Positions 4,711-37,200 of a stretch of 54,027 nt of DNA are shown here, one piece after another. Each line of letters starts with the position of its first letter. The first letter of the stretch is position 1. The stretch is from Blastocatellia bacterium (GTDB taxonomy: Bacteria; Acidobacteriota; Blastocatellia; Chloracidobacteriales; Chloracidobacteriaceae). The stretch covers positions 1-54,027 of the forward strand of contig JAIBAN010000056.1 of NCBI GenBank assembly GCA_019695185.1, written 5' to 3'. The position numbers and the translations under genes are program-made. The notes under the pieces were generated by a model. That model ran no database searches. It worked only from the letters and a program-made list of their open reading frames with translations, and was not told the DNA's origin.

Positions 4711-4733
4711 TTTGAACGACCCTCAAGACTGAT

Positions 4734-13509: not shown

Positions 13510-15510
13510 ATGCTGAACATCAACCGGGTGATTTTATACAAACACGGAATTGGATATTTTGAACGAGCCGGTTCCATCGAAGGCGACAGGGCGGTGGATT
13601 TGTTTTTCCGCACCTCGGAAGTGAGCGACGTCCTCAAATCGCTGACGGTGATTGACCTGGACGGAGGCGAGATTGCCTCGGTGTCTTATGATTCCATCAA
13701 GCCGCTCGACGAACTGCTGCGCGACATTTCCCTGTCGGTGCCCGACGACAACAGTCTGCTCGGACTCCTGCCGCAATTGAAAGGGGCACAGGTGGAAATC
13801 CAGTGTGGCGGTGAAACCCTGCAAGCCATGATTGTGGGAATTGACCAGACGACCTCCCGCTCGGCGGACGGCATTACAACCACGCCCTCCATCACGGTTT
13901 TGACTTCAGACGGGCAACTGCAATCACTTTCCATGCGCGAGATTCGTTCGATTACCCTGCTTGAGGAACGACTGCGCAAGGAATTGGAGTATTACCTCAC
14001 CATGCATCTGTCCTCCAAAAAGAAGGACATCAAGAAATTCACTGTGTTCACCCAGGGGCAAGGTACCCGCCGGTTGCAGGTGAGCTACACGCTGCCCATG
14101 CCGGTCTGGAAGGCGACCTATCGCATCATCCTGGAGCCAAACCGCGAATCCATCATTCAAGGCTGGGCCGTGGTGGACAACACCCAGGACGAAGACTGGG
14201 AAAACGTCTCGTTGTCGCTGGTTTCCGGCCTTCCGATTTCGTTTATTCACGACCTCTATACCGCCCGCTATCTGCCGCGCCCGGTGGTGGCCGTCCAGGA
14301 GGAAACCTCGCTGGCACCACCGATGATGGAGGAACCCGTCTACCGCCAGGAACGCGCCACCAAAGAAATCTATCCGGGGGCAGCCGCAGCTCCGGCTCCG
14401 GCTCCGGCAGCCGAAAGTTATGCGACCACCGGCCTGGCGCAGGAAATGTCATTTGGGCATCAGGCCAAACGCCGGACCGCTCCGCAAGGCATCAGCAGCG
14501 TCAACGTCCAAACCCGCGAGCGGGCGGTGGGCGACCTGTTCCAGTACGAAATCACAACGCCGGTCACCATCAAGCGCAACCAGTCGGCGCTGGTTCCAAT
14601 TGTGTTTAAGAAATTCAAAGGCCGGTCGGTCCTCCTCTATAATGAACAAACCCGTGCCCGTAACCCGCTGACCTGCGTCGAGATGGAAAACACCACCGAA
14701 TTGACGCTGGAAGGCGGTCCGGTGACTGTGCTCGAAGGAGACACCTATGTGGGCGAGGCCATGCTGCAAACCATGAAGCCGGAGGAAAAACGACTGGTGC
14801 CCTATTCGGTTGAGCTGGGTGTCGTGGCCGAGGCCAAAATGGAAAGCCGGCAGGAACGAACCCACTTTGTCAAAATCGTCAACGGCACGTTGGAAGCCTG
14901 TTATCTGGATGTCCGGCAAAAAGTCTATGTGTTCAACAACAAGGTCAAAGCGGAACGGACCGTTTATATTGAACATCCGCGCGACCTGGGTTGGGAACTG
15001 ACTTCCACGCCGGAACCGGTTGAGACCACGCCCACCTATTACCGGTTCAAGGCCAAACTGGAACCCGACAGCACGGCGCGGTTTACGGTTCATGAAAAGC
15101 AGGAACGGAGCCACTATTATCAACTGCGCAATATCACAAGCGATGAGTTGGAATTCTACATTGGCCAGCGTTATGTCAACCGGCAGGCGGCAGAGACCCT
15201 GCAAAAAGTGCTGGAACTCAAACAGCAAATCAACGACCTTGACCTCGACCTGGGGCGTGCGGAAGTTGAAAGCCGTGACATTGAAACCGACCAGAAACGG
15301 ATCCGCGAAAATCTGCAATCGCTCAAGGAAGGCCGGGGTGAACAGGAACTCCGCACCCGGCTGGTGGAAAAACTGCTCAGTCAGGAGGAACGTCTGGAGC
15401 AATTGCAGAAATCCATCAGCCTGCAACGGGCCGAGCGCATCACCTTGCATGAAAAAATCAATTCGCTGATTGCTGACATCCGGATGGAAATCAATCTGAA
15501 TCAGGACTGA
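13510..15510 (+). CDS. Conserved hypothetical protein with C-terminal coiled-coil (possibly DUF4139/DUF4140-like)
   Basis: 666 aa. RBS AGGGAG. The globular N-terminal two thirds are followed by a heptad-rich coiled coil (LELKQQINDLDLDLGRAEVESRDIETDQKRIRENLQSLKEG...). The family assignment is from memory only and is weak. Confidence 0.55.
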   Translation: MLNINRVILYKHGIGYFERAGSIEGDRAVDLFFRTSEVSDVLKSLTVIDLDGGEIASVSYDSIKPLDELLRDISLSVPDDNSLLGLLPQLKGAQVEIQCGGETLQAMIVGIDQTTSRSADGITTTPSITVLTSDGQLQSLSMREIRSITLLEERLRKELEYYLTMHLSSKKKDIKKFTVFTQGQGTRRLQVSYTLPMPVWKATYRIILEPNRESIIQGWAVVDNTQDEDWENVSLSLVSGLPISFIHDLYTARYLPRPVVAVQEETSLAPPMMEEPVYRQERATKEIYPGAAAAPAPAPAAESYATTGLAQEMSFGHQAKRRTAPQGISSVNVQTRERAVGDLFQYEITTPVTIKRNQSALVPIVFKKFKGRSVLLYNEQTRARNPLTCVEMENTTELTLEGGPVTVLEGDTYVGEAMLQTMKPEEKRLVPYSVELGVVAEAKMESRQERTHFVKIVNGTLEACYLDVRQKVYVFNNKVKAERTVYIEHPRDLGWELTSTPEPVETTPTYYRFKAKLEPDSTARFTVHEKQERSHYYQLRNITSDELEFYIGQRYVNRQAAETLQKVLELKQQINDLDLDLGRAEVESRDIETDQKRIRENLQSLKEGRGEQELRTRLVEKLLSQEERLEQLQKSISLQRAERITLHEKINSLIADIRMEINLNQD

Positions 15511-16945: not shown

Positions 16946-18340
16946 ATGTCAGATGGGAATTTTCCTGAGCAGAAACCTTTTGGACGCGTCAATCGCCGGA
17001 CGGCTGCCTACGGCGGCGAATCGAAGGATTGGTGGCGGACATCGCGCCGCAAATTCATCATCGGCGGGGCGGTGGCCGGGGTCGGAGCCCTGGCTGTAGC
17101 TGGAGGCGGCCTCTATTGGCTGCTCAAAGACGATACCTCCGAAGTCAATCACGACTCGCTGGACTTGCAGAAAAAACATGGCTGGAACATTGGTTCCGAG
17201 GAAAAAACCATTTCGCTTCCCAATGCCCAAACCAAGGATTCGCTGGGAACGGAAAACTGGAAGAAGTATCTGGACCAGAATGCCATGCTGGCGGCCTGGA
17301 CTCCCAAAGCACCAAACTGGGCACCCTATTTTGTGCCAACCCTGATACAGTCGCTCCAGTTTGAAACCCTGCGCAAGGTGATGACACCGGTTTTCACGCC
17401 CGATATGCAGGAAGCCTACGAACGGGCGCAATCCATCGCCAGGGATTTTCTGGCCAATGCCCAGAATGCCGCCGACACTGCCATTGTGGTGGATGTTCCC
17501 GGACGGGACAGTGTCGCGTTTGGCGCGGGCATGGCCGATTCGGGCCGCCTGATTGCCGGGTTTGACAATTTTCCGCACCCGCTGGGCGTGGTTCCCTCGC
17601 ACGAAACGCTGGGAGCGTTGCTGTATTACACAGGCGAAATCGAAACCAAACAGGCCCAGGTGAAGGATACGGCTCCGGCGGTGTTTCTGCTCGATTCAAA
17701 GCGGCTTTCCGAGTACAAGGACGAAGAAACCCAGTTTGACAACCGCTTTCTGGCCAAACTGCCCTCGGCTCAGAAACTCCGTGAAGCAGGCATCAAATCC
17801 ATTCTCTATATCACACCGGACCGGGCCCGGAGCGAGGAACTCGACGACCTGAACGAGGATTTTGTCGCATTCAAAGACCAGGGCCTGAGCGTGGCCGTCC
17901 TGCCGCTCAGTGATTTCACCCCCGTCAGCGAAACCGTGGCCCAAAAACAGGCCGACGGAACCACGCAAACCCAGGTGGTGCGGCATTATTATTATGGCGG
18001 GAACCCGCTGGGGCACACGTGGTTTTTCTACTCGTACCCGTTTTATTCGCCCTATCCGTCGTATGTGCAACGGTATCCGACCTATTCGCGCCCGCCCTCA
18101 CCGCCGCCGGTCAGCGCGCCCAGATACCTGCCTGCACCACGCCCGACCATGTTTTCAGGCACCCGCATCGGAGGTTCGGCCAGCGGGGTCGGACGCAGCA
18201 AACCGAGCGGTTTCGGTCGCACCACAGTTCGCGTTTCGCCGAGCGGTTCGGTCGTCGGAACCCGCCCTGGACGGTCGGGCTACTATTCGCCCAGCCGGAG
18301 CGGCTCGTTTGGCCGGAGCGGTTCATCTTCAGGCGGATAA
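16946..18340 (+). CDS. Membrane-anchored protein with Tyr/Pro-rich and Ser/Gly/Arg-rich low-complexity C-terminal tail (possible DUF1190/YgiB-YjfM-like partner of the ATP-grasp)
   Basis: 464 aa. RBS AAGGAGCA. One TM helix (IIGGAVAGVGALAVAGGGLYWLL). C-terminus is ...YYYGGNPLGHTWFFYSYPFYSPYPSYVQRYPTYSRPPSPPPV...GRSGSSSGG. The DUF1190 call rests on neighbourhood logic (E. coli ygiBC and yjfMC) plus weak tail similarity. Confidence 0.5.
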   Translation: MSDGNFPEQKPFGRVNRRTAAYGGESKDWWRTSRRKFIIGGAVAGVGALAVAGGGLYWLLKDDTSEVNHDSLDLQKKHGWNIGSEEKTISLPNAQTKDSLGTENWKKYLDQNAMLAAWTPKAPNWAPYFVPTLIQSLQFETLRKVMTPVFTPDMQEAYERAQSIARDFLANAQNAADTAIVVDVPGRDSVAFGAGMADSGRLIAGFDNFPHPLGVVPSHETLGALLYYTGEIETKQAQVKDTAPAVFLLDSKRLSEYKDEETQFDNRFLAKLPSAQKLREAGIKSILYITPDRARSEELDDLNEDFVAFKDQGLSVAVLPLSDFTPVSETVAQKQADGTTQTQVVRHYYYGGNPLGHTWFFYSYPFYSPYPSYVQRYPTYSRPPSPPPVSAPRYLPAPRPTMFSGTRIGGSASGVGRSKPSGFGRTTVRVSPSGSVVGTRPGRSGYYSPSRSGSFGRSGSSSGG

Positions 18341-22160: not shown

Positions 22161-22313
22161 GCTGAGGACTGAGAGTCTTCTTTTGGATACATTTAATCCA
22201 GATTGAGGACATTTCTGTACTTCGATGGTATAAATCATCCAGAAATTGTTTCTCAGTCCTCAGTCCTGAATTTTTCTCAGTCCTCAGTCCTCAGTCCTCA
22301 GTCCTCAGTCCTG
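22161..22313. repeat. CTGAGGA-family inverted heptamer arrays between the DUF1517-like gene and the STK
   Basis: GCTGAGGACTGAGAG ... CTCAGTCCTCAGTCC ... (TCAGTCC)x6. Confidence 0.8.
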
Positions 22314-22324
22314 GGAGCTTCATT

Positions 22325-24025
22325 GTGCTGACCTCAATGCTTGGGCAAACCATTGATAACAAAATCCTCCTGGAGTCCGTTCTGGGCGAGGGTGGAATGG
22401 GAGCGGTGTTTCGAGGGCGGCACCTGCGGTTGGACCGGACCGTCGCAGTCAAGGTCATTCAACCGGACCTAGTGGCGGACCGGCAGGCAGTTGACCGGTT
22501 CCTGCGGGAAGCCCGCACCGCCGCCCGGATTGAACATCCCAACGTCATCACCATTTTTGATTTCGGGGCTTTGACCAACGGGTGTGCCTACCTGGAAATG
22601 GAATTTATCGAAGGAGTGTCGCTGTTTCAGATTTTGGTCCGGCAAGGCGCACTCCCGCTTGAGGTGGCCTTCCCCATCATCCGGGAGGTCTGTGCAGCAG
22701 TGGAAGCGGCTCATGCCAAAGGGGTGGTCCATCGGGACCTGAAACCGGCCAACATCATGCTCAAGCAGTTGGACCGGGGTGGATGGACGGTCAAAGTGCT
22801 TGATTTTGGGCTGGCGAAAGCCATTGAAGGCTCTGACAACCTGACCAAAACCGGAGAATTTCTGGGCACTCCCATGTATATGTCACCGGAACAATGTGAC
22901 GGTGCAGAGCTTGACCAAAGGTCAGACATCTACAGCCTGGGCGTCATTTTTTATGAAATGCTGGCGGGCCGTCCGCCGTTCAAGGGACGACTGGTTGAAA
23001 TCATCAAATCGCACGCCACCAGAAACCCTGAGCCAATCTCCAATTTCAACCCGATTGTCACCAACCAGGTCAGCCAGGCGATTTTAACCGCTATGGCCAA
23101 AGACCCCAATGACCGCCCGGCAACGGTCAGGGACTATTTCGCCCGGTTGGAACAGGCGTTCACCCAACAATTGGCAACTCCGGTACAAACACTGAACCTG
23201 AATGGAATAGCCTTTGGAGCCGTGCCTGTCCCATCGTATTCCGGCACACTCAGCGAGCAACCCAGTCCAACTCCGTTTCAAACCTTAAAGGAAACACCGC
23301 CATCCAGATCAGTGGTACCGCTCTCCAGCCCTGTGGTGGAGGATACCGACCCCAAGCACTCTTCTTTTCAGCCTACCCTGAAAGAAACTCTCGCTCCTGG
23401 TACCAAAGGCGGAACCATCTCTTTGGGTTCCAGTCAACCGCTTGACAAAGAAGTAATCCCGCCTGATGCCTATCGCACCCGTCAATCGGTACCGGTTTCC
23501 ACCGGGCAATCCGGCAATCTGGCAACTTTGCGCGACCCCCTGCCGCTTCCGTTGACTGAAAATATCAAACCGACACAGGCCCGGTCCAAGCGCACACCGC
23601 TACTGGTGGGAGGATTGGTGACCAGTCTGGTTGCAGTGACTGTGGGAGGCTGGTGGATGTTTGTTCCCAAACCCGCTCCGGCGCAACCCAGCACGCCCGT
23701 TACCAAACCGGGACCGGTTGAACCGGCCAGCACCAAGTTGACCCCGGAAAACCCCGGTACCAATGTCCAACCACAACCGGCCAGCCCGGTTGAAAAAAAA
23801 CCCACCTCCGCTCCCGACCCCAGGCCGACCGCTTCGCATGAGCCTGAGCCTCCACCAATTCGCCCAGGTGACCGTCCCCCCATTCAACGACCTGAACCAC
23901 CCAAAAAGGAAAATGTCTGGAAAAAAATGGGCAAAGGGATGCTCGGCGTCCTTACCGGCGAAGATAAAAACAACAAGGACCGTGGCAAAGACAAAAAGAA
24001 TAAACACAATCGGGACCGGGATTGA
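22325..24025 (+). CDS. Membrane-anchored Hanks-type Ser/Thr protein kinase
   Basis: 566 aa. Kinase subdomains GEGGMGAVFRG, AVK, HRDLKPANIML, DFGLAK, SPEQ. Pro/Thr-rich linker, one TM helix (LLVGGLVTSLVAVTVGGWWMF), and a Lys/Asp-rich tail. GTG start. Confidence 0.85.
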   Translation: MLTSMLGQTIDNKILLESVLGEGGMGAVFRGRHLRLDRTVAVKVIQPDLVADRQAVDRFLREARTAARIEHPNVITIFDFGALTNGCAYLEMEFIEGVSLFQILVRQGALPLEVAFPIIREVCAAVEAAHAKGVVHRDLKPANIMLKQLDRGGWTVKVLDFGLAKAIEGSDNLTKTGEFLGTPMYMSPEQCDGAELDQRSDIYSLGVIFYEMLAGRPPFKGRLVEIIKSHATRNPEPISNFNPIVTNQVSQAILTAMAKDPNDRPATVRDYFARLEQAFTQQLATPVQTLNLNGIAFGAVPVPSYSGTLSEQPSPTPFQTLKETPPSRSVVPLSSPVVEDTDPKHSSFQPTLKETLAPGTKGGTISLGSSQPLDKEVIPPDAYRTRQSVPVSTGQSGNLATLRDPLPLPLTENIKPTQARSKRTPLLVGGLVTSLVAVTVGGWWMFVPKPAPAQPSTPVTKPGPVEPASTKLTPENPGTNVQPQPASPVEKKPTSAPDPRPTASHEPEPPPIRPGDRPPIQRPEPPKKENVWKKMGKGMLGVLTGEDKNNKDRGKDKKNKHNRDRD

Positions 24026-24145
24026 GTTCCGAATTCTGAGTTCTGAGTTCTGAGTTCCGCCTGAAGGCGAACCCTCAATCACCCGCCTGTACTTTCCCGC
24101 TTCCCTCCCCTTGAGATGCAGTCCGGTAGAATTTTGAAAATTTTG

Positions 24146-24176
24146 CTTGACGGCCCCAAAAATCGGATTAGCATTT
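24146..24176 (+). promoter_or_regulatory. Candidate sigma70-type promoter of the riboswitch leader
   Basis: TTGACG, 16 nt, TAGCAT. Confidence 0.35.
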
Positions 24177-24219
24177 CACTTGCTTTTTTAGTTTTACCAA
24201 AGTTCTTTGCCAGAGTCAG

Positions 24220-24400
24220 TTTTGCAGCCGAGTCTGCTTCCGCCCAGATGAGAAGCAGAGCGGGGGAACCAATTCGAAAGTGCAGTTTCGCTTTCAGGGG
24301 TGAATCCGGTGACGGGCAACCGTCGCTGGTAGGGTACTTCAGAGCCCGAATCCGTCAGCTAACCTCGTAGGCCCATTCTGGATGAGCAGACGATCTGCGT
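24220..24400 (+). ncRNA. ydaO: c-di-AMP riboswitch (ydaO-yuaA class)
   Basis: Contains GCGGGGGAACCA, GGGGUGAAUCCGG, CCCGAAUCCGUCAGCUAACCUCGUAGGC. The last closely resembles the crystallised Thermoanaerobacter c-di-AMP riboswitch segment CCCGACAGCUAACUCCGGAGGC. The element has a pseudo-twofold arrangement, lies between a promoter and an intrinsic terminator, and sits upstream of a KimA-like transporter. Confidence 0.6.
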
Positions 24401-24415
24401 GTACTCATTTTTAGA

Positions 24416-24452
24416 GCCACAGACCGCTTGGTCTGTGGCTTTTTGCTTTTTT
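24416..24452 (+). terminator. Intrinsic terminator (expression platform of the riboswitch)
   Basis: GCCACAGACC gctt GGTCTGTGGC followed by TTTTTGCTTTTTT. Confidence 0.7.
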
Positions 24453-24466
24453 GGGGCTTTTTTTCT

Positions 24467-26440
24467 ATGTGGTCTTTTTTGAAACGGGCGATTGTTGGAA
24501 ATCCGATTCCAACTGAGCAAGCGCACCACGAACGGCTTTCCAAACGGATTGCGCTGGCTGTGTTTTCTTCCGACGCTCTGTCTTCCACGGCTTATGCAAC
24601 TGAAGAAATCCTGCGGGTGTTGGCGGTTGCCGTGGTCTTTGGCCAAGGACATGCCTTTACCTACGTGATTCCGATTTCGGTGGGCATTTCAATCCTCCTG
24701 GCTGTGGTAGGCATGAGCTACCGGCAGACGATTTATGCCTATCCGTCAGGAGGTGGAGCCTATATCGTTGCCAAGGAAAACCTGGGAACAATGCCGGGAC
24801 TGGTCGCTGCGGCTTCACTGCTGGTGGATTATGTGCTGACGGTGTCCGTATCGGTGGCGGCAGGGGTGGCGGCCATCACGTCTGCCGCTCAGGGAACCTC
24901 CTTTGCCTGGGTTTCCAACCATTCCGTGGCCATGTGCCTGGTGTTGATTGTTTTTATTGCCCTGGCCAATCTGCGAGGCGTGAAAGAATCGGGACTGCTT
25001 TTTTCCATTCCGACCTATGCCTTCATTTTTTCCTTCGTGGGAATGATTGTCTGGGGTTTGGGCCGCTACCTCATGTTTGGTGTGACGCCGACTCCGCCTT
25101 TGGAACCCGCCATCGCTGAAGGCTACCATCCGGGTCCGTTAACCCTGATGCTCTTTTTGGGGGCGTTTTCCAATGGCTGTACTGCACTGACTGGGATTGA
25201 GGCCATTTCCAACGGGATTCCCGCTTTCCGCAAACCGGAGTCGCGCAACGCCGCCACCACCCTGGTCTGGATGAGCATCACGCTGATTGGACTGTTCCTG
25301 GGCGTGAGCGTACTGGCTTATTTCTACAAAGTTGTTCCCAGCGAAGCGGAAACCGTCACGTCCCAAATCGCCCGCCAGATTTTTTCGGGACCGATGCAAT
25401 GGTTTTTCTTTTTTCTTCAGGCCGCCACCGCAGCCATCCTGGTTCTGGCCGCCAACACCAGCTTTGCGGATTTTCCGCGCCTGACTTCGCTTTTGGCACG
25501 GGACAGGTTTCTTCCCCGTCAATTTGCCAACCAGGGCGACCGGCTGGTTTTTTCCAATGGGGTAGTGGTCCTGGCCGTTCTTTCCTCCTTGCTCCTGGTA
25601 ATGTTCAAGGGAGATACGCACCGCCTGATTCCGCTTTATGCCGTGGGTGTTTTTGTCTCCTTTACCCTGTCCCAGGCAGGTATGGTCCTCCATTGGCTGC
25701 GGGAACGTGACCAAAGCCGGGTTCACACGGCTGCTGAGGCGACCAAACGGGAACGCAAGGAAAAGAGCAAAGACGTTGACACCGGACGGTTGATTGGGGA
25801 CTTCACCGAAATCAGCGGGTGGAAGACCTCGCTCATGATTAACGCCCTGGGAGCAATCGCCTGTGCCGTGGTGCTGGTGGTGTTTGTCATCACGAAATTC
25901 GTTCACGGAGCCTGGGTCGTGTGCGTGCTGATTCCGGTGATTGTCATCATGTTCCGGGGCGTGCGAAGGCATTATGATAATGTGGCCGACCAGCTTGTCA
26001 TCACCTGGAAACCCAAACTCAAACAGCGCAAACATACCGTCATTGTTCCGATTTCAGGAATTCACAATGGTGTGATTCCAGCCCTGGAATATGCCCGTTC
26101 CCTCTCGAAGGATTTCAAGGATGCCAGAGCTGTTTATATCAGTATTGACCCGGCAGCGACTGCCCAGGTGAAAAAAGAATGGGAAACGTACGCTGATTTT
26201 ATGCCGCTGGTGATTCTGGATTCCCCATACCGTTCACTGTTGAAACCACTAATGGATTATATTGACGAGGTTTCCAATGAAAATGAAGATACGTTTGTTA
26301 CCGTCGTGCTGCCGGAGTTTGTCCCAGCCCGGTGGTGGCATAATTTCCTCCATAATCAATCGGCAATTTTGATTAAGGCAGCCCTCCTGTTTCGGCGAGG
26401 AGTGATTTCCGTCAGCGTGCCCTATCATTTGACGCATTGA
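24467..26440 (+). CDS. kimA: APC-superfamily transporter, KimA (YdaO)-like K+/amino-acid permease with C-terminal cytoplasmic domain
   Basis: Twelve predicted TM helices. APC signature ...SSDALSSTAYATEEIL.... C-terminal domain of ~200 aa. Start taken at the ATG after the terminator (MWSFLKRAIVGNP...). Confidence 0.7.
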   Translation: MWSFLKRAIVGNPIPTEQAHHERLSKRIALAVFSSDALSSTAYATEEILRVLAVAVVFGQGHAFTYVIPISVGISILLAVVGMSYRQTIYAYPSGGGAYIVAKENLGTMPGLVAAASLLVDYVLTVSVSVAAGVAAITSAAQGTSFAWVSNHSVAMCLVLIVFIALANLRGVKESGLLFSIPTYAFIFSFVGMIVWGLGRYLMFGVTPTPPLEPAIAEGYHPGPLTLMLFLGAFSNGCTALTGIEAISNGIPAFRKPESRNAATTLVWMSITLIGLFLGVSVLAYFYKVVPSEAETVTSQIARQIFSGPMQWFFFFLQAATAAILVLAANTSFADFPRLTSLLARDRFLPRQFANQGDRLVFSNGVVVLAVLSSLLLVMFKGDTHRLIPLYAVGVFVSFTLSQAGMVLHWLRERDQSRVHTAAEATKRERKEKSKDVDTGRLIGDFTEISGWKTSLMINALGAIACAVVLVVFVITKFVHGAWVVCVLIPVIVIMFRGVRRHYDNVADQLVITWKPKLKQRKHTVIVPISGIHNGVIPALEYARSLSKDFKDARAVYISIDPAATAQVKKEWETYADFMPLVILDSPYRSLLKPLMDYIDEVSNENEDTFVTVVLPEFVPARWWHNFLHNQSAILIKAALLFRRGVISVSVPYHLTH

Positions 26441-26444
26441 AGAA

Positions 26445-26544
26445 AGGGTTCAGGGTTCAGGGTTTCAAACCCTGCTCCCACAGGCATAAATTGGGATTCA
26501 AACTAAAATCTTTATCTCCCTGAACCCTGAACCCTGAACCCCAA
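26445..26544. repeat. CCTGAAC-family inverted heptamer arrays
   Basis: (AGGGTTC)x3 ... ~70 nt ... (CCTGAAC)x3, directly after the kimA-like stop. Confidence 0.8.
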
Positions 26545-27443: not shown

Positions 27444-27567
27444 ACCACAGGAGTCGGGAATCAAATTTGTTGAAGGCATAAGGTAAAAGGCAGAGCACAA
27501 AGCTGAAAAAAACGGATTAAGAAGTCCCAATTTTTCCCTGCTGATTTCCAACTTTAGACTTTGGCAA

Positions 27568-27601
27568 ACCCTGAACCCTGAACCCTGAACCCTGAACCCT
27601 C
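27568..27601. repeat. CCTGAAC x5 direct heptamer array in the 5' leader of the flotillin-like gene
   Basis: ccctgaaccctgaaccctgaaccctgaaccct lies immediately upstream of the AAGGAG RBS. Confidence 0.8.
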
Positions 27602-27616: not shown

Positions 27617-29581
27617 ATGGAACCGGTCATCGGCGTTATTGTGCTGGTTGTGCTTGGCTTGGTGGTTCTTTCAATCATCAATCCGTTTTATCTGATTCGT
27701 GAATCTGAAGTCGGTCTGCTGGAAAAGAAAATCATCGGCGGCCAGTTGCCTGCCGGAAGGGTGCTGGCGACCGGTCAACAGGGATTGCAGGCCCGAACCC
27801 TGACGCCAGGGCTTCACTTTTTGCCAGCCCCGTTCTATCGGGTCACGCGGTTCCAGATTATCGAGGTTCCCCAGGGTCAAATCGCTCTGGTGACGGCGAT
27901 TGACGGGGCTCCGCTCCGGACCGGACAGATGTTTGCCGACAGCGTGCCTGACCATTTCAATTTTCAGGACGGCGAAGCCTTTCTGCGCAACGGCGGCCAA
28001 AAAGGGCCGCAGGTGGACCTCCTCACGCCGGGCCGGTATCGTATCAACACCCGCTTGTTTGACCTGCAACTGGCTCCGGTGGTGTCCATTCCGCAGGGCA
28101 AAGTCGGAATGGTGACCGCAGCCGACGGGGCTCCGCTGGCAACCGGGCAAATCCTGGGCAAACGGGTTCACGGCCATAAAAACTTCCAGGATTGTCAGGC
28201 GTTCTACCGCGCTGGCGGTCAAAAAGGCCCACAGGTGGATATCCTCACGCCAGGGCAGTATTACATCAATCCCCGGGTTTTCCAGATTGTCCTGGCGGAT
28301 GCCATCAGGGTCAGCATTGGCGAAATCGGATTGATTGAAGCCTATGACGGAGGCTACCTGCGCGATGAGCAAATCCTGGGTGACAGCGTGCCGGGCCACA
28401 ATGATTTTCAGGACGGACAGGCGTTTTTGGACAACGGCGGTCAGCGTGGTCCGCAATTGGATATTCTGAAACCGGGCGGATACTACATCAACACCATGCT
28501 CTTTGGCGTAACCGTGCAGGATGCCACCGTCATTAACATCGGCGAAGTGGGCGTGATGCGTTCCAACGTCGGAATTTTGCCCCCCGTCGGTGAAGATGGA
28601 CGGACGCCCGACCTGGTGGACGAAGGCTATCGGGGTGTGCTCAAAACGGTGCTGGAACCCAATACCTATTACCTCAATCCGACTGCCCATGTGGTCTTTC
28701 CGATTTCAACCCTGAACCTGACGATTGACTGGAGCACCACCAATCGGGAAACGCCCCTCGACTCGATTACCGTTAAAAGCCGGGATGGGTTCTCCTTCCC
28801 GGTGGATGTCAAAGTGGTGATTCGGGTACCGAAGGAAAAAGCCCCCATGGTGGTTTCGAAAATCGGTTCGATTCAAAACGCAATTGACCGCGTGATTCAC
28901 CCGGCCATTGGGGCGACGTTCCGGAACAACGCCGAAAAATGCGATGCGCTCGACTTTTTGAACAATCGTTCGCAGCAGCAGGCCAACGCCAAGGAAATCA
29001 CCATTACCATGTTGCGCGAATATGGCATCGAAACCGTGGATGTCCTGGTGGGGGATGTTGGCATTCCTGAGACACTGCTCAAAACCCAGACCGACCGCTT
29101 TTTGGCCAAGGAACGGGAAAAGACCTATAAAGAGCAGAAAATAGCCGAAGACACTCGCCGCGACCTCGACGCCGCCACGGCCCAGGCCGACCAGCAAAAG
29201 AACATTGTGGCCGCCCAGGCTGCGGTGGACATCGCCAAAGCCAAAGCCCAGTCGGTTGTGGTTACCGCCGAAGCCGAGGCCAAAGCCACAGTGGTTGGTG
29301 CCGAAGCCGAAGCCACCCAAATCAAGCTCCGCGCCGAAGCCAATAAAATCGCCTTTGAAATGCTCACCGAACAGGTGGGACGCGAAGGCGTCATGATGCT
29401 TGAAACCCTCAAACTCGTGAAGGAAGGGCAAATCAAGATTACACCGGATGTCTTTATCAACGGCGAAGGTTCGCCGCTTTCGGCTCTGGCCGCCACCATG
29501 CTCAACGGGCAGATACTCAAACCAATGTTACAACTTTCGGAAAAAGCTGGAGAAGGCTCAAAAACCTCCAGTCAAGGCTAA
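27617..29581 (+). CDS. Flotillin-like SPFH/band-7 protein with triple internal repeat insertion
   Basis: 654 aa. RBS AAGGAG. N-terminal membrane hairpin. Three ~83-aa tandem repeats (VTAxDGAPLxTGQ...NFQDxxAFxxxGGQKGPQVDxLTPGxYxIN). SPFH-like core. C-terminal Ala/Glu-rich flotillin-type repeats (AEAEAKATVVGAEAEATQIKLRAEA). Confidence 0.65.
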   Translation: MEPVIGVIVLVVLGLVVLSIINPFYLIRESEVGLLEKKIIGGQLPAGRVLATGQQGLQARTLTPGLHFLPAPFYRVTRFQIIEVPQGQIALVTAIDGAPLRTGQMFADSVPDHFNFQDGEAFLRNGGQKGPQVDLLTPGRYRINTRLFDLQLAPVVSIPQGKVGMVTAADGAPLATGQILGKRVHGHKNFQDCQAFYRAGGQKGPQVDILTPGQYYINPRVFQIVLADAIRVSIGEIGLIEAYDGGYLRDEQILGDSVPGHNDFQDGQAFLDNGGQRGPQLDILKPGGYYINTMLFGVTVQDATVINIGEVGVMRSNVGILPPVGEDGRTPDLVDEGYRGVLKTVLEPNTYYLNPTAHVVFPISTLNLTIDWSTTNRETPLDSITVKSRDGFSFPVDVKVVIRVPKEKAPMVVSKIGSIQNAIDRVIHPAIGATFRNNAEKCDALDFLNNRSQQQANAKEITITMLREYGIETVDVLVGDVGIPETLLKTQTDRFLAKEREKTYKEQKIAEDTRRDLDAATAQADQQKNIVAAQAAVDIAKAKAQSVVVTAEAEAKATVVGAEAEATQIKLRAEANKIAFEMLTEQVGREGVMMLETLKLVKEGQIKITPDVFINGEGSPLSALAATMLNGQILKPMLQLSEKAGEGSKTSSQG

Positions 29582-29678
29582 CCCCCAAACGACTACAGGC
29601 GCGAGGGGTTTACCGCTTGGAAACCCAGGGCCGGGAAATCCTTGCGCCTGCCGGTTGGACCTGATTCCGTACTGCTTT

Positions 29679-30296
29679 ATGTCACATCAAAAACCCCAGG
29701 TTTTGACTGGTTTGGCTCCATTTTCAACCAGCGGGTTCGCCCAACCACAGGCGGTTTCCAATCGAACGGGCCAATTCCCCTTTTTCATTTGGATGCCCTT
29801 GGGATTGGGAGCCTTGACCCTGTTGCTGCTGTTGGGCGGGTTGGTTTGTTCCCTCTGGTTTGACGCAACCAAGGGAAATCTTTGTTTGAAAGCCGGCTTT
29901 GCAGTCACGGTCATCCTGGGTCTGTTTTCCCATCTTGGTACCGGCAGCAGGCTTTCAGCCCGCTGCCCCGACCCGGTTTTTTTCTGTCGGCTTGAACAAT
30001 CTCTCAACCGATTGCTCAAGGTATTGGTGTTGGGCTGCGGGCTGGCATTGGCAACGCTGGTTTATTCCGGAAATGGAATTCCCAGTTCAACCGACCCGCA
30101 GGCATTGTTGGCCCAACGCTCCCAATATCTGCTCTGCCAACGTGGAAAGGAAACCGCAGTTCCCCGGCAACAGTTTGTCTTGAATGGAATCTGTGCCCAG
30201 GTGGTCTGGAATTCCGCCCTGCTGCTCGGAACTACCGCTTTCCTGCTGCGCCTGCTTGGTCACCGGAATCACCTTTCACAAAGCTCTGAAGACTGA
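29679..30296 (+). CDS. Hypothetical membrane protein
   Basis: Internal start chosen to avoid overlap with the flotillin gene. Hydrophobic helices present. No RBS. Weak. Confidence 0.3.
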   Translation: MSHQKPQVLTGLAPFSTSGFAQPQAVSNRTGQFPFFIWMPLGLGALTLLLLLGGLVCSLWFDATKGNLCLKAGFAVTVILGLFSHLGTGSRLSARCPDPVFFCRLEQSLNRLLKVLVLGCGLALATLVYSGNGIPSSTDPQALLAQRSQYLLCQRGKETAVPRQQFVLNGICAQVVWNSALLLGTTAFLLRLLGHRNHLSQSSED

Positions 30297-30322
30297 AAAG
30301 GTTCTTTCAAGGAGGAATGTCC

Positions 30323-31051
30323 ATGACGAGCCCTCACTTGACTATCCGCCATGAATCACCGCCAGAACGCTGCGAAATCTGCCATCAGGCGGACCAGTTT
30401 GACCCGCAGACCGGGGTGTGTCAGCGCTGTGCCCCGTTGCTTGACCGTTCTTTAGTTGCCAAAGCCCAAATCCCATCACTTCCGCAGCCCTTTCAATCAG
30501 TTCTGGAAAGTCACCTGACGATGGGTGAAGGGATTCTGTGGACCGGGCAGCCTGCCCGATGGCATGCAATCATTTTGACTTTTTTTGCTTCCCTGTTGTT
30601 TTTCCTCCCTTTGCTTTTGGTGGGAGGGTTTTTTTCTTCTCTGAGCAAAGGCTGGATTGGAATCAACCTGGTCCTGCATCCGGTTGTCCTGCTGCTTTGG
30701 TCTGGCATAGCCGTTTTGCTCATGTACCTGCAATGGAAAAAAAACTGCTCCACGTATTATGTGGTGACAGACCGAAAACTCGCGTATCTGGAAGGAAAAT
30801 CCATCACCAAAATCCGATTGGCAACTCCGACAGACCTCCACCACCTTGAATGCCTTGAGCGAAAGAGTGGTTCAGGCAGTTTGTATTGGAAGCATTATGG
30901 AGCCGATGGTGGAACCCAGGATGAACCGGCCTTTCGCGGGTTTGAAAATATTGAACGGGTTCATGAAGTAAAAATGCTGATTCAAAGGCAGTTGCTCCGA
31001 ACCACGCCGTTTCCCGGAGACTCCGCACATGCCCCCGAAGGTTTCAACTGA
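30323..31051 (+). CDS. Zinc-ribbon + 2TM + bPH(DUF304-like) membrane protein, paralog 1
   Basis: RBS AAGGAGG lies 7 nt upstream. ERCEICHQADQFDPQTGVCQRC (CxxC-x12-CxxC). Two TM helices. YYVVTDRKLAYLEG is a bacterial PH-like motif. Confidence 0.6.
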   Translation: MTSPHLTIRHESPPERCEICHQADQFDPQTGVCQRCAPLLDRSLVAKAQIPSLPQPFQSVLESHLTMGEGILWTGQPARWHAIILTFFASLLFFLPLLLVGGFFSSLSKGWIGINLVLHPVVLLLWSGIAVLLMYLQWKKNCSTYYVVTDRKLAYLEGKSITKIRLATPTDLHHLECLERKSGSGSLYWKHYGADGGTQDEPAFRGFENIERVHEVKMLIQRQLLRTTPFPGDSAHAPEGFN

Positions 31052-31772
31052 CAGAAAACTCCTGGTTCGGCACGAAGGACTTGCCCAAAGGTGTGAAATC
31101 TGCCACCAGATTGACCTTTTTGAACCCGTTTCCGGAATTTGTCGCCGCTGCCCCCCCAGCCGGATTCCACCGCCCCAGGTGCTTGACCCGCAAAGTCCGG
31201 CATTTTCACAGCGTGTCCGGCGAATTCTGGGCCATGAACTGATGCCGAATGAACGGGTTCTTTGGGTTGGAACTCCAAGTTGGTGGTATATCCCAAGTCA
31301 AACCATTGGCTCCTTTGTTGTTTCTACCTTGATTGTCGGGTTGATTGGCTTTGGTTGTATAGTGAACCATCTGGTTTGGCTGGGAATCCTGCTCTGGGCT
31401 CTGATTGGAGGCGCTTTTCTCGATGGGCTTAACCGTTGTCTCAACCGGCCCGTTTATCTGGTTTCAGACCGGCGGGTGTTGATAGTGACCCAAAGGTTGT
31501 TCCAAACCAACTCACTTTCGTATTTTGGCTCCCAGCTCCAGCGGGTGACCCATATCCGTCATTCCGGGCAACGAAGCAGCCTTATTTTTGACCATCACCC
31601 GATACAGCCCCAAGCCGAAATTAAGGCAAATGGGATTGGGTTCAAAAGCATTCCCCAGGCCGAAACGGTGGAACAATTGATTCGAACCTATGTCCTGCCC
31701 CCGACCAGCCCGCTTGGGTTCAAAGAAAGAAACGAAGATGCCAGCCAAATCAGACTTTCAGATTCGGAATGA
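31029..31772 (+). CDS. Zinc-ribbon + 2TM + bPH-like membrane protein, paralog 2
   Basis: AQRCEICHQIDLFEPVSGICRRC. TM helices. VYLVSDRRVLIV PH-like motif. Overlaps the ends of paralogs 1 and 3. Confidence 0.6.
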   Translation: MPPKVSTDRKLLVRHEGLAQRCEICHQIDLFEPVSGICRRCPPSRIPPPQVLDPQSPAFSQRVRRILGHELMPNERVLWVGTPSWWYIPSQTIGSFVVSTLIVGLIGFGCIVNHLVWLGILLWALIGGAFLDGLNRCLNRPVYLVSDRRVLIVTQRLFQTNSLSYFGSQLQRVTHIRHSGQRSSLIFDHHPIQPQAEIKANGIGFKSIPQAETVEQLIRTYVLPPTSPLGFKERNEDASQIRLSDSE

Positions 31773-32502
31773 AAAATTACCCGAACGCTGCGAAATCTGC
31801 CATCAGGCGGACCAATTTGACCCGCAGACCGGAGTGTGTTTGCGGTGTCAAAACCTGCCTCAGCCGCCAGTATCGGAAAACTTGCGGACTGCCATCAGGT
31901 TTCGATTTCTGCAAATCGGGATGCTCCTGTTCCTGGCTGGAAGTGTGGGATTGGGGTTGGTTGGACTTTTATTCCTGAGCCATAGCTGGATATGGTGTGG
32001 TATGGCAGGGTTTCTGGGAATCTGGGGAATGGGGTGGATCAGTTTGGACCAGTCATCCCGGAGGCAAAAGAAAAAAACGACCACCGAAAAAGCGCCGGAC
32101 TCAAGCCTTGAACCCACCCCAATCACCTTGGCGGTCGTGGTTCCCTGGGTTGCCACATACCGAAAACTCTATGAATCGGTTGCATTCTTTTTCATGGTCC
32201 TGGGAATGATTGGAATCCCGTTGGTATTGCTCTCAACGGCTTGGCAAAAAGGCTCCTATCCTACGAGTCAGGACACCACCGTGTTTGCCCCGCAGGAACA
32301 TTATTATTTCACCGACCATGGTAAGCAGATAGAAGTCACTCGCCTCAGGTATGTTCTGAATGGATTTCTCATTTTCGGTTCCTGGCACTGTTTCACCATG
32401 GCTTTTGCACTCATGATGATTCAGAAACTGGCGTATGAAAAACCTCTGGGGAAGCCGGAGGAGGGAAAGTCGGGAAATCCATATTCCAAGGCCAGCCCGT
32501 GA
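31738..32502 (+). CDS. Zinc-ribbon membrane protein, paralog 3 (divergent C-terminal part)
   Basis: PERCEICHQADQFDPQTGVCLRC is near-identical at DNA level to paralog 1. Four TM helices. Confidence 0.55.
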   Translation: MPAKSDFQIRNEKLPERCEICHQADQFDPQTGVCLRCQNLPQPPVSENLRTAIRFRFLQIGMLLFLAGSVGLGLVGLLFLSHSWIWCGMAGFLGIWGMGWISLDQSSRRQKKKTTTEKAPDSSLEPTPITLAVVVPWVATYRKLYESVAFFFMVLGMIGIPLVLLSTAWQKGSYPTSQDTTVFAPQEHYYFTDHGKQIEVTRLRYVLNGFLIFGSWHCFTMAFALMMIQKLAYEKPLGKPEEGKSGNPYSKASP

Positions 32503-33440: not shown

Positions 33441-34001
33441 TTATTTCTTTTCCAACTCCCGTTGGAGCCACGCCCGTGCCAGACTCCATTCGCGTTTGAT
33501 GGTTGGAGTTGAAACACCAACCACCTCGGCGGTTTCCTCAACGGTCAGTCCACCAAAATAGCGCAGTTCGACAATCCAGCTTTTCCGGGGGTCAAACGCC
33601 GCCAGAGCGGTCAGGGCTTCGTCGAGGGCGACAACCTCCGCCGGCTTCTCGACCGAAACCGGCAGGCAATCATCCAACGGTGAGAGCGGACCGCCGTCCC
33701 GCTTTTGCCGGACCTGACCACGGGCATGGTCTACCAGAATGTGACGCATCACCTGGGCTGCAATGCGAAAGAAATGTGCCCGGTCCTGCACGCCACCGCC
33801 CTCGTACTCAACCAACCGCAGATAGGCTTCGTGAACCAGTGCGGTGGGCTGCAAGGTATGGTCAGGGCGCTCCGCCTGGAGGTATCTTCCGGCCAGTCGC
33901 CGCAGTTCGTCATAAACCAGCGGCCAGATTTGATTCATGACATCCTGGTTGCCATTGCGAAACTCAACCAAAAGTTGCGTAATGCTTGGGGTGGTGGACA
34001 T
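33441..34001 (-). CDS. ECF sigma factor, STK-associated type (ECF43-like / TIGR02999-like)
   Basis: Start at MSTTPSITQLLVEFRNGNQDVMNQIWPLVYDELRRLAGRYL...HTLQPTALVHEAYLRL (region 2). ...LTVEETAEVVGVSTPTIKREW (region 4). The upstream extension of the track ORF only translates TTGAGAA heptamer repeats. Confidence 0.85.
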   Translation of the reverse strand: MSTTPSITQLLVEFRNGNQDVMNQIWPLVYDELRRLAGRYLQAERPDHTLQPTALVHEAYLRLVEYEGGGVQDRAHFFRIAAQVMRHILVDHARGQVRQKRDGGPLSPLDDCLPVSVEKPAEVVALDEALTALAAFDPRKSWIVELRYFGGLTVEETAEVVGVSTPTIKREWSLARAWLQRELEKK

Positions 34002-34009
34002 AGGGCAGC

Positions 34010-34170
34010 AGCAATTGAGAATTGAGAATTGAGAATTGAGAATGGGAATGAAGGGATTGGTATTCGTACCCGGATTCTTGCATTCACTCTCTGATTTCTG
34101 TTCCGGAACATCAACAGTGTTTTCTGTCTCAATTCTCAATTCTCAATTCTCAATTCGTAATTCTCAATTA
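34010..34170. repeat. TTGAGAA-family inverted heptamer arrays in the divergent sigma/STK intergenic region
   Basis: (AATTGAG)x4 ... ~85 nt ... (CTCAATT)x5. Confidence 0.85.
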
Positions 34171-34270
34171 TTTTTTTTCCGGATGATCCCGTTTTCAAAA
34201 AAAGGACGCTTCTCCCGTTCGAAAGGTCAAAAAAACCATATTTCAAACTCGAAATGAAAGAGGATTCCCC

Positions 34271-37200
34271 ATGACTCCCGAACGCTGGAAACAAGTCGAA
34301 GAATATTTTCAATTGGCGCTGGACGTGCCACCGTCCCTGCGTGAAAACCGTTTAGCCGAATTTTGTGAAAACGAGTCCATCCGGCGCGAAGTGATGGAAC
34401 TCTTCTCCTATCATGACCACGAAGCGGCGGTGGACGCCCCGATTCAACTGGCTTCGAAAATACCCACCGCCCTGGCCAATATGATTGGCCAGACCCTCGA
34501 CGGAAAATACAAAATTGAGCAACAGCTTGGAAAAGGTGGCATGGGCAGCGTCTATCGGGCGACACACCTTGGTACGGGCAGAACTGTGGCCGTCAAAGTT
34601 ATCACGCCCGAATTGACCCTGCATCCGGAATTTGTCGAACGCTTCAAACGCGAAGCCAAAGCCGCTGGCCGGCTCCGCCACCCGAACATTGTCAACGTCA
34701 CCGATTTCGGCATTGCTGAAAAGGAAGGGTTCCAGATGGCCTATCTGGTGATGGAATACCTGGACGGCTTTTCTTTGACCAAATATCTGAAAGACAACGG
34801 CAAACTCCCGGTGGAAAAGGTCTTTGAGATTTTGGAACAAATCTGCCCTGCCATTGACGCAGCCCATGAGCAAGGTGTCATTCACCGGGACCTCAAACCG
34901 GACAATATTTGGCTGGAACCCAATGGACGAGGCGGCCTGACGGTCAAAATTCTGGATTTCGGGTTGGCCAAATTCCGTGGAGCCGCCGGATTGCTGGAAG
35001 CCGACGAACTCCTTCCGGCAGGGCAGGACACAACGCCGGAAAGACTAAGAGAAATACTTGAAAACCGCCAGATTCCAGCTTGGACCCGCAGCCCACTTGA
35101 ATCCGGCAGTGAACGGTTGACCCAACTTCAGTCAGCGGGACAAACCCACCACGCCGGACTGACCCGCACCGGCGTCATGATGGGAACTCCGCTCTATATG
35201 TCGCCCGAACAATGCCGGGGCGGCCAGGTGGAAGCAGCCTCGGATATCTACGGCCTGGGCGTCATCACCTTCCAAATGCTGGCGGGAACCACGCCGTTTG
35301 CGGGAGAAACCCCCAAGGTGATTTCAGGGCATCTGTATGCCGAGCCTCCGGCCCTGGCCCCCCTTTGCCCGAAACTGTCGCGCCCGGTGGCAGCCATTGT
35401 CATGGAAGCCCTGGCGAAAAACCCGGTTCACCGTCCCTCCACCGCCGGTTCGTTTTTAACGGCAGCCCGCCTGCATCACGAGGGCGAGCACCATCTGGCG
35501 CGTGAAGCCCGGCACCTTTTTCGCACCTTTTTCCCGCAGTTGACTCGTGTTTCAGTCCAGAGTCAGGGACTGTGGGTTGCAGCAGCCTGTCTGACAGGGG
35601 CGGTGTTGCAGGCAGGAATCCCGTTTGACCTTCCGGGCGGTTGGCTGATTCAGGCTGCCTTGTGGGTTATCCCCTTTGTCTGCCTGTTGATTGGACTGGA
35701 AGCCAATGCCGGCACCCAGACCCTGTCGGTTGAGGCAATCCGGCGCAACCAACTGACCAACCAACCTTTTCCTGAAATTCAACTTAATCTGAAAACCACC
35801 CCTCAAACAATGGTTGGCAGTACCTTCAAAGGGCTCCTTTCCCCCTCCACCCTGCTGGCCACACCGGTAACCGCCTTTGAAAAAATCACTTTGCCCAATG
35901 CAGTCACCCGGTCCCGGCGTTTGCTGGCAAATTTGAACCCACTTGCTCTTCCGCTTTGGTTGCGCCAATTCACGCTTGCAGCCGGACAACTGGCACTCAC
36001 GGTCTTGTTATTGGGCACCACCCATCAGATTTTCCAGATTTTCGGCGAGAATCCGGCCAGCACCTTCATTGTCAAACTGGGAGTTGCGTTTTTGGGCTGC
36101 CTTGGACTGGGGGTTGTGTTTGGAACTCCACTGGCCTTGACTCGCGGCCTGCTCTATTTCCGGGCCCGTGAAGTGGCCGGAGAGCAGTTGGATGGCGGGT
36201 ACCATAAAGTGGTGGAGTTGCGACCACTCACCGGCAATTATGGGCAGCGGTTCCGCCTGCCTGCGCTGGTCGCCTCGACGTTGCTCATGGCCCTGGTCCT
36301 GCAAACCACGTATCTTCTGTATATTCCTCCGGTCGGCTTGCCGCCCCGGTTTGACAAACCGGTGGCCCGAACCGTTCCCACAGGGGAAAACGGCTGGGTT
36401 GAATATAACAAAGCGTTGAAAAAGGTAGGCAAAACCCCAAAGGACACATTGGATATTCCGGTTAATGTCACCAAGTACGCAAGTGGTGATGCACCCGAAT
36501 TGACCCAGGAAACCCAAGACTTCCTGGACTCTAATCAGGAAGCCATGCACCATCTGCTGGCTGGAGCCCGGTTTCCCCAACTCAGTATTCCCACGAATTG
36601 GAATGCGGCTGACTTTGAACCATTGGAACCAACCAAAAACATTTTGGCTTTTCGCAGTTTGAATCACATTGCCATGGCTAACTGCCGCCGTCTGGTCAAA
36701 GAGGGAAAAGGCAAAGAAGCCGCAGAACTGTTGATGGCCTCCTATCGGCTGGTCAGCGCAGTCAATCAAACTGATGAATCAGTATGGACAACCCTGATTG
36801 CGATTTCGGGCCGTGGGGCCGGACATACGACCTTGTTTTATTGGTATAGTCAAGGTGGGGCGGATGCAGCCACTGAAGCCACCGTGGTCAAAGGATTGGC
36901 AGCCTCAGTGACAAATGCCTCCACCCCCTATCAGGTTTTTCAGAAGGAATACCAGTTGGCAGGACAAAATTTGTACAAAAGGCTGATGGTGGATCCATTT
37001 TCAACGCATACCAGCCCGTATGGTGAGGAAAGACTTGAAAATATAGTGAAACTCTTTCCTGGCTTGCGTACCCGAACCTACCAAAGCTTTGTTGACACAA
37101 ACACATTCTTGCTAGAGTCCTTTCGACCCAACCTGGAAAACTGGGATTTATCGCATGGTGATTCAACCCAAAAAGAGATTTTTCGAAATTATCACTGGTG

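Follow-up and report, generated by a model that had tools for sequence, protein, structure and literature searches.

What governs the gene for a predicted potassium importer in a Blastocatellia bacterium, and could an RNA that senses cyclic di-AMP (c-di-AMP) be part of the answer? The question is raised by a 54,027-nucleotide (nt) stretch of DNA (contig JAIBAN010000056.1; hereafter "the window," by which we mean the whole stretch), in which the gene for the membrane protein MBX7222189.1 is preceded by a leader resembling the ydaO riboswitch, an element that takes its name from the gene known today as kimA. Taken as a whole, the evidence makes it likely, and we say so with good confidence, that this leader is a c-di-AMP OFF switch, one that would act by transcription termination before a KimA-type K+ importer.

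A c-di-AMP aptamer ahead of a KimA-type gene

What kind of RNA is the leader? An Rfam scan of the window returned a match to RF00379 (c-di-AMP, ydaO/yuaA) with 72 bits, where the gathering score is 38 (E 8.1e-15). The match is untruncated, running over model positions 1-134 of 134 and both pseudo-symmetric halves; it is the sole above-threshold Rfam match within the whole 54 kb, and its 3' end lies 78 nt upstream of the kimA homologue on the same strand. When the leader is aligned with those of relatives (13 leaders), the RNAalifold consensus recovers the family fold, and compensatory double changes retain pairing at 16 of the 30 consensus pairs, in at least one sequence each. Identification of the leader as a ydaO-class c-di-AMP riboswitch is thus well supported, and c-di-AMP binding is predicted from the family's known behavior. 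Its placement, in the 5' leader of a K+-transport-type gene, is that seen in the c-di-AMP regulon, whose genes for this class concern K+ or osmolyte transport and the cell wall (PMC7266159). A ydaO-class riboswitch had already been claimed here in a preliminary description of the stretch, and the significant RF00379 match and the covariation confirm it; the promoter-like element, ydaO blocks, terminator, and open reading frame (ORF) end quoted in that description are all present at or near the positions it gave.

What does the gene encode? The ORF finder placed its start at a TTG at 24428, inside the terminator; the true start is the ATG at 24467, which aligns with Met1 of KimA. Pfam assigns the protein to AA_permease_2 (PF13520, E 4e-34), and no NCBIfam model names it. 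In a search of the PDB, Bacillus subtilis KimA alone matches (6S3K, 8B70, and 8B71; 6S3K_B at E 7.1e-145), with 44.4% identity. Residues 1-414 align with chain residues 1-400 of 6S3K (the 12-TM, LeuT-fold membrane domain) and residues 450-655 with 402-605 (the cytosolic domain), separated in the window protein by a charged insertion of ~35 amino acids (aa) at residues 415-449 relative to KimA. This match over both domains bears out the earlier proposal of an APC-family membrane protein with a C-terminal cytoplasmic domain and KimA architecture.

The residues that matter for KimA function point the same way. In the window protein and 10 Acidobacteriota relatives, the K+ site and gate residues (D36, Y43, T121, S125, T230, and Y377), the proton-coupling E233, and the trans-inhibition D117, whose roles are known from KimA (PMC6994465), are all identical, as are the transmission residues Y118 and N237. 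(In window numbering, D36, Y43, D121, T125, T242, E245, and Y391 correspond to KimA D36, Y43, D117, T121, T230, E233, and Y377.) Identical in the same proteins are the c-di-AMP contacts R337, V457, L461, P479, H579, N580, Q581, and S582, residues of a pocket whose roles are likewise described (PMC10284832); residues of the cooperativity network are changed conservatively (F565L, R587K, and W592F). Because of the full-length match and these conserved functional residues, assignment to the KimA subfamily of K+/H+ symporters is supported, with transport predicted, and the window protein itself very probably binds c-di-AMP. The current labels are "APC family permease" for MBX7222189.1 in GenBank and "amino acid transporter" for relatives in JGI; the evidence supports renaming MBX7222189.1 as a KimA-type K+/H+ symporter. 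As for the suggestion of potassium or osmolyte uptake, the residues indicate K+/H+ symport, but osmolyte transport is without any support.

Between the aptamer and the start codon lies the strong intrinsic terminator claimed in the preliminary description. Its hairpin (-23 kcal/mol; 13 pairs, 7 of them G-C) is the strongest of its neighborhood in a terminator scan that is not enriched overall (4 sites observed versus 5.5 expected). It is conserved in relatives, being unchanged in L031, a locus that encodes the same protein in DNA 96.8% identical overall, and differing by a single G-C to G-U change in L032, whose protein is 77% identical. The candidate Shine-Dalgarno (SD) sequence of kimA in the window is a weak G-run at 24453-56.

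The start of the transcript is less firmly placed. A TTGACG-16-TAGCAT promoter had been claimed, and its elements are present: 293 nt separate the end of the -10 hexamer from the ATG, the candidate lies ~42 nt 5' of the aptamer, and all 28 of its 28 nt are identical in L031, in which the ~10 nt 3' of the -10 hexamer hold 4 mismatches. The consensus match is 9/12, and the region around it holds 5 promoter-like sites where 1.7 would be expected (both from a consensus scan; the promoter rules of Acidobacteriota are poorly known), so that a role as promoter is at most plausible. If it is the promoter, the transcript probably begins near 24181.

We propose a mechanism in which transcription starts from this element at ~24181 and the first ~190 nt of the mRNA fold as the ydaO-class aptamer. 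High c-di-AMP would signal that K+ is sufficient and that there is no osmotic need; two c-di-AMP molecules would lock P1, the long-range helix, and the pseudoknot made by the tail that follows P1 (Table 1). In this ligand-bound state, the spacer would fold alone as hairpin X, the terminator would close fully, and RNA polymerase would halt 15-25 nt 5' of the kimA start codon, leaving kimA off. At low c-di-AMP, the 3' strand of P1 and the pseudoknot tail would be released and would most likely lengthen hairpin X downward; the lengthened hairpin would seize AGAGCC (24413-18) in the basal part of the terminator 5' arm, closure up to the U-run would fail, and kimA would be transcribed. KimA would then import K+ together with H+. 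The intact c-di-AMP pocket makes direct inhibition of the protein by c-di-AMP probable as well, and control would in that case operate at two levels, RNA and protein, as in B. subtilis. Ligand binding, the OFF logic, and K+ transport are all predicted here by analogy with the family's known behavior.

Table 1. Features of the kimA leader and gene, in window coordinates
Feature	Coordinates	Strand	Basis or detail
Sigma-70-like promoter candidate	24147..24174	+	Consensus scan; TTGACG (24147-52), 16-nt spacer, TAGCAT (24169-74)
c-di-AMP (ydaO-class) riboswitch aptamer	24216..24388	+	RF00379 match and pair covariation in 13 leaders
Aptamer helix P1	24227-29 with 24370-72	+	
Aptamer long-range helix	24260-65 with 24363-68	+	
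Conserved ydaO block GCGGGGGAACCA	24260-71	+	
Conserved ydaO block GGGGUGAAUCCGG	24297-309	+	
Conserved ydaO block CCCGAAUCCGUCAGCUAACCUCGUAGGC	24345-72	+	
Pseudoknot 5' strand UUCAGA	24338..24343	+	Loop of last aptamer hairpin
Pseudoknot 3' strand UCUGGA	24377..24382	+	Purine-rich tail after P1
Candidate antiterminator AT'	24370..24418	+	U-AGAGCC (24412-18), at base of terminator 5' arm, paired with P1 3' strand GGC (24370-72), pseudoknot tail (24377-81), and hairpin X
Spacer hairpin X	24382..24408	+	Minimum free energy (MFE) and centroid folds; AUGAG with CUCAU, inner CAGA/UCUG stem; holds ACGAUCUGCG
Conserved spacer block ACGAUCUGCG	24390-99	+	
Intrinsic terminator	24413..24452	+	Terminator scan; 13-bp stem 24413-25 with 24430-42, loop GCUU, U-runs 24440-44 and 24447-52
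Terminator sequence GCCACAGACC-GCTT-GGTCTGTGGC	24416-39	+	T-runs after it at 24440-44 and 24447-52
kimA homologue, 657 aa, predicted KUP-family K+/H+ symporter with C-terminal c-di-AMP-binding cytosolic domain	24467..26440	+	PDB, Pfam, residue alignment
Hairpin just after kimA stop, inverted heptamer arrays (GGGTTCA / TGAACCC repeats)	26446..26541	+	

How does the proposed switch compare with known systems? In B. subtilis, the ydaO riboswitch represses kimA and ktrAB, and c-di-AMP also inhibits the KimA protein (PMC10284832). Like that system, the window combines an RNA of the RF00379 family, a gene of the KimA family, and a terminator in the leader; its residues for K+/H+ symport and for the c-di-AMP pocket are kept too, so that expression and activity are both predicted to be controlled. 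Unlike it, the host is a Blastocatellia (Acidobacteriota) metagenome-assembled genome (MAG) rather than a Firmicute; the proteins are 44% identical, with the charged insertion in the window protein alone; and the terminator follows P1 at a distance of ~40 nt, with an extra spacer hairpin in between and no clear antiterminator seen. Termination promoted by c-di-AMP binding has been reported for riboswitches of this class in Bacillus thuringiensis (PMC6488665) and in Dehalobacter (PMC9337991). The B. thuringiensis kdpFABC riboswitch has the same transcriptional OFF layout, an aptamer and then a canonical terminator in the 5' untranslated region of a high-affinity K+ uptake system, but that system is a kdp operon there and kimA here; in the B. 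thuringiensis study, riboswitch-controlled kdp operons turned up almost exclusively in Bacillales, and relatives of the window have kdp genes beside kimA with KdpD-type regulators of their own (PMC6488665 for the Bacillus side of this comparison).

No new mechanism is involved: this is the known pairing of riboswitch and kimA in another phylum, and understanding of the class is unchanged. What is gained is, in the first place, an annotation, in that a generic permease with an unmarked leader becomes a KimA-type symporter under a c-di-AMP riboswitch. Beyond this, c-di-AMP-dependent K+ homeostasis would be placed in the Acidobacteriota, abundant and poorly studied soil bacteria, at the RNA level and very probably at the protein level; the Acidobacteriota are missing from a list, published in 2019, of phyla in which c-di-AMP riboswitches were predicted ahead of K+ transporters (PMC6488665). 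Of more general interest is the finding that close relatives pair the same aptamer with different expression platforms, including a terminator version with no obvious antiterminator.

The leader among relatives

Is the leader kept where the protein is kept? KimA homologues were gathered by protein, not by leader, and their flanks were then scanned with Rfam. Among the closest relatives with available DNA (100%, 77%, 67%, and 65% identity to the window protein), the riboswitch is present at 4 of 4 loci (L031, L032, L091, and L033-35); conservation of the leader upstream of orthologous transporters, on which the preliminary description had hung its reading, therefore holds for relatives of at least 65% identity. 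At 60-64%, the count falls to one of seven (L039/40). More distant homologues carry the riboswitch at 4 of the 29 loci with upstream DNA among species-representative genomes (36-52% identity; L001, from a Vicinamibacterales MAG, and L010, L015, and L017, from Paenibacillaceae) and at 2 of the 25 loci on JGI metagenome contigs (at most 50% identity; L048 and L052). A metagenome scan for close relatives yielded only proteins of at most 50% identity and is uninformative on the expression platform.

Because several relatives at 60-64% lack it, riboswitch control is dispensable. Where the riboswitch is missing, kimA commonly adjoins kdpD or a histidine kinase paired with a response regulator. At four relative loci, with or without the riboswitch (the P0003 contig, L033, L036, and L041), it sits beside kdpA, kdpD, or kdpF, neighbors that support a K+ role for the kimA homologues. 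The arrangement at L036, L041, L094, L091, L033, and the P0003 contig points to mutual substitution between the riboswitch and protein regulators in this clade.

Could the aptamer in the window, then, be a decaying relic, or the sensor of some other ligand, with kimA mainly under other regulators, for example the neighboring Ser/Thr kinase or two-component systems? The six relatives at 60-64% without a riboswitch, beside two-component or kdpD genes, speak for this, as does a change of AA to AG at 24231-32, the one exception among nearly all the highly conserved aptamer positions. That variant, however, is read as a lineage trait because it is also present in L033. The score, moreover, is almost double the gathering threshold; the aptamer of L031 differs by a 1-nt loop insertion alone; and both the helices and the pseudoknot are kept by compensatory changes in relatives. 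We consider a relic or a sensor of another ligand very improbable, and an aptamer still in service as part of a c-di-AMP OFF switch remains our preferred reading.

Several of the relatives' leaders show arrangements of their own. Two complete aptamers stand in tandem (4301-4501 and 4589-4777) upstream of the kimA homologue at L010 (Paenibacillus validus), each with a terminator and a clear antiterminator; tandem copies of c-di-AMP riboswitches are already catalogued (PMC9481103). L091 carries a second c-di-AMP riboswitch at 3243-3401 (76.8 bits), with a promoter and leader that differ little from those of its kimA copy, and the gene directly after it (L091:3405) encodes a 651-aa membrane protein that lacks both a Pfam domain and a homologue in the window and that may be an unrecognized member of the c-di-AMP regulon. 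At L033, an Acido-Lenti-1 RNA (RF01687; 46.4 bits against a gathering score of 37) occupies positions 2649-2695, ~135 nt upstream of that locus's c-di-AMP riboswitch, lying between kimA and a divergent kdpD-side gene, and has no counterpart in the window.

From aptamer to expression platform

How would ligand binding be passed on from the aptamer? One route is the pseudoknot. A duplex between the loop of the last aptamer hairpin and the tail can form in 13 of 13 leaders with sequences that differ (CUUCCA with UGGAAG in L032; CUUCCC with GGGAAG in L039), and it outscores at least 90% of shuffled tails in 6 of the 8 non-Paenibacillaceae leaders. The window duplex has 6 bp and an energy of -5.3 kcal/mol, equaled by 4% of shuffled tails. 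MFE folds also show an extension of P1, "P0" (CCAGAGU at 24210-16 with AUUCUGG at 24375-81), that competes for the tail and with which a G-U to A-U change in L031 is compatible. We do not count P0 as part of the aptamer because the family-wide pseudoknot needs the same tail; it would be at most a ligand-free alternative outside the aptamer proper.

The tail has a second life in relatives. UCUGGA in the window is homologous to the SD sequence CUGGAG of those relatives whose aptamer adjoins the start codon: 2-3 nt separate the end of the aptamer from the start codon in L001, in L033, and in the two leaders of L091, where the tail (CUGGAG or GGGAG) serves as the SD sequence; in L033 and both L091 leaders, the homologous tail lies 6-8 nt 5' of AUG. 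A ligand-induced pseudoknot in L033, L091, and L001 would mask the ribosome-binding site, much as in an engineered translational c-di-AMP sensor in which a pseudoknot hides the SD sequence (PMC11963983). The window shares the loop-tail pseudoknot with such translational riboswitches, and L091, L033, and L001 are its closest riboswitch-bearing relatives after L032. Unlike them, the window and L032 have a tail that is no SD sequence, and an 85-nt module (hairpin X, the terminator, and a new weak SD sequence) intervenes, by which output would have moved to transcription; the SD-like tail of the window lies 85 nt 5' of the kimA AUG.

After the tail, the window and L032 keep the same order of spacer hairpin X, terminator, G-run, and AUG. 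Between these two leaders, spacer and terminator are conserved about as well as the aptamer core, while the variable aptamer hairpins have diverged with compensation, and for this reason the expression platform is taken to be under selection. We speculate that in this Blastocatellia clade the same aptamer was converted from translational output (tail as SD sequence, as in L033 and L091) to transcriptional output by insertion of the 85-nt hairpin and terminator module, giving a switch without a classical antiterminator, in which the freed P1 strand and the tail hold only the bottom 4-6 terminator pairs and control is purely kinetic. This full scenario is doubtful. If it were true, the clade would offer a natural close pair for studying the evolution of expression platforms, and the minimal overlap needed to veto a terminator.

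Could selection on the spacer have another cause, namely, that the product is the terminated leader (~265 nt) itself, acting as a c-di-AMP sponge or as a small RNA derived from the riboswitch, and that kimA is controlled only secondarily? The spacer is kept in sequence and not just in structure, ACGAUCUGCG being identical in L032 although hairpin X has a disrupted inner stem in that leader, and the terminator looks constitutive in models. Yet ACGAUCUGCG is complementary to the terminator 5' arm in L032, which is an explanation in cis; no target or precedent in the lineage is at hand; and the aptamer stands directly 5' of a gene in 13 of 13 leaders. Of all the explanations weighed here, we give this one the least credence. 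The spacer also holds an ORF of 10 codons (24382-24414, AUG at 24382; MSRRSACTHF, from AUG AGC AGA CGA UCU GCG UGU ACU CAU UUU UAG) that spans the spacer hairpin and ends just 5' of the terminator. We rejected it as a leader peptide: it has no usable SD sequence, its AUG is missing in L032, and it is probably a coincidence.

The critical question for an OFF switch by termination is whether the aptamer can reach the terminator, and it is here that the reading is weakest. Besides the relatives at 60-64% identity that lack the riboswitch, a series of results from folding and from gene content weighs against it. No convincing antiterminator was found in the leader, the best upstream duplex with either terminator arm reaching -11 against -23 kcal/mol. 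In ensemble folding of the whole leader, the terminator core has a probability of 1.0 (the whole terminator, ~0.96) whether the aptamer is unconstrained, its helices are enforced, or its 5' strands are blocked. Loss of the terminator costs 18.7-24 kcal/mol in the window. The one candidate antiterminator, AT', covers just 6 of the 13 nt of the terminator 5' arm, trails the terminator state by 5.5 kcal/mol at equilibrium, and is not unusual against shuffles (0.25 fold equally well); its homologue in L032 (-4.3 kcal/mol) loses to an MFE of -9.4 kcal/mol in which the ACGAUCUGCG block pairs with the terminator arm. With respect to the signal itself, no c-di-AMP synthase or phosphodiesterase (DAC, GdpP, or PgpH domains) occurs among the 38 ORFs scanned on the 54-kb contig, and a motif search found no DAC motif in 594 kb of the window and fetched relative loci. 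DAC homologues in Acidobacteria were reported by a 2011 database search (PMC11254362), and we found nothing in the literature on c-di-AMP enzymes in Acidobacteria beyond that remark.

What would a clear case look like in the same test? In both L010 copies, used as control leaders, terminator loss costs 6.5 and 9.9 kcal/mol, and there are clear antiterminators in which the terminator 5' arm re-pairs with the 5' region of the aptamer; the test finds no clear antiterminator in the window, L048, or L015. AT' is nevertheless the sole structure found that joins ligand-sensitive strands to the terminator, and it is the MFE structure of the nascent tail 24369-24429 (-14.5 kcal/mol). We therefore put it forward, on weak modeling grounds, as a tentative antiterminator with classical logic. 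Other pairings were considered as well. "AT2," in which ACGAUCUGCG pairs with CCACAGACCG of the terminator 5' arm, is the MFE structure in L032 and reaches only about -7 kcal/mol in the window. "State B," in which the spacer (24370-24406) forms a long helix with the aptamer 5' half (24213-44), is iso-energetic with the native fold (-94.0 versus -92.3 kcal/mol); we set it aside, as it leaves the terminator intact and requires the local P2 hairpin to unfold.

Is the leader, then, a true c-di-AMP sensor whose terminator is constitutive, or merely a leaky attenuator, with regulation taking another path, for example through Rho, the stability of the mRNA, or initiation of translation at the weak G-run? 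Ligand-dependent terminator formation appears in no equilibrium model, there is no strong competitor for either terminator arm, and L033, L091, and L001 use the same tail as an SD sequence for translational control, all of which would fit. But the window tail is too far from the kimA AUG to be its SD sequence, and an unrelieved terminator of -23 kcal/mol would keep the gene silent. Strong purifying selection, moreover, acts on the terminator and spacer along with the aptamer, and terminator platforms are a documented mode of the class (PMC6488665, PMC9337991). On balance, we regard a constitutive terminator as improbable. OFF control via termination is the likely outcome, its logic following the family's known behavior. 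The transcription attenuation claimed in the preliminary description thus stands as to the anatomy of the terminator, which is conserved, but it is from this anatomy that it is drawn, and the antiterminator that would complete it was not convincingly found.

Surroundings of the leader on the contig

The neighbors of kimA on the contig are consistent with Blastocatellia: Ser/Thr kinases, a PF07638 ECF sigma factor, FHA and TPR/CHAT proteins, efp, tsaD, and ftsY. Among them are a CHAT-TPR protein at 1261-4710 and an ECF sigma factor adjoining a 1108-aa Ser/Thr kinase at 33441-37597. Large ORFs of 1221, 666, and 464 aa have no Pfam match, nor does a run of four (244-282 aa) downstream of an SPFH/Band-7 protein (9301-12966, 13510-15510, 16946-18340, and 29448-32502).

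The hairpin just after the kimA stop codon has a 20-bp stem and an energy of -45.2 kcal/mol (z -5.2; 0 of 200 shuffles fold as well), and the transcript probably has its 3' end here. Its heptamer repeats are part of a wider pattern. The contig holds 25 short heptanucleotide tandem arrays, 833 bases in total and nearly all intergenic, from families that include CTCAGTC, AACCCTG, TGAGTTC, AATTGAG, ATTTGCC, and others. Many form inverted pairs 30-80 nt apart, able to fold into very long hairpins. Examples lie at 15503-15532/15617-15639, 22244-22313, 24023-24057, 26445-26464/26518-26541, and 27567-27600 and, farther along, at 33259-33282/33315-33435, 34013-34043/34127-34169, 48403-48438/48515-48579, 51121-51160/51234-51260, and 52316-52346/52396-52418. 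The arrays resemble the heptameric STRR repeats of cyanobacteria, and one of them stands just upstream of the candidate kimA promoter.

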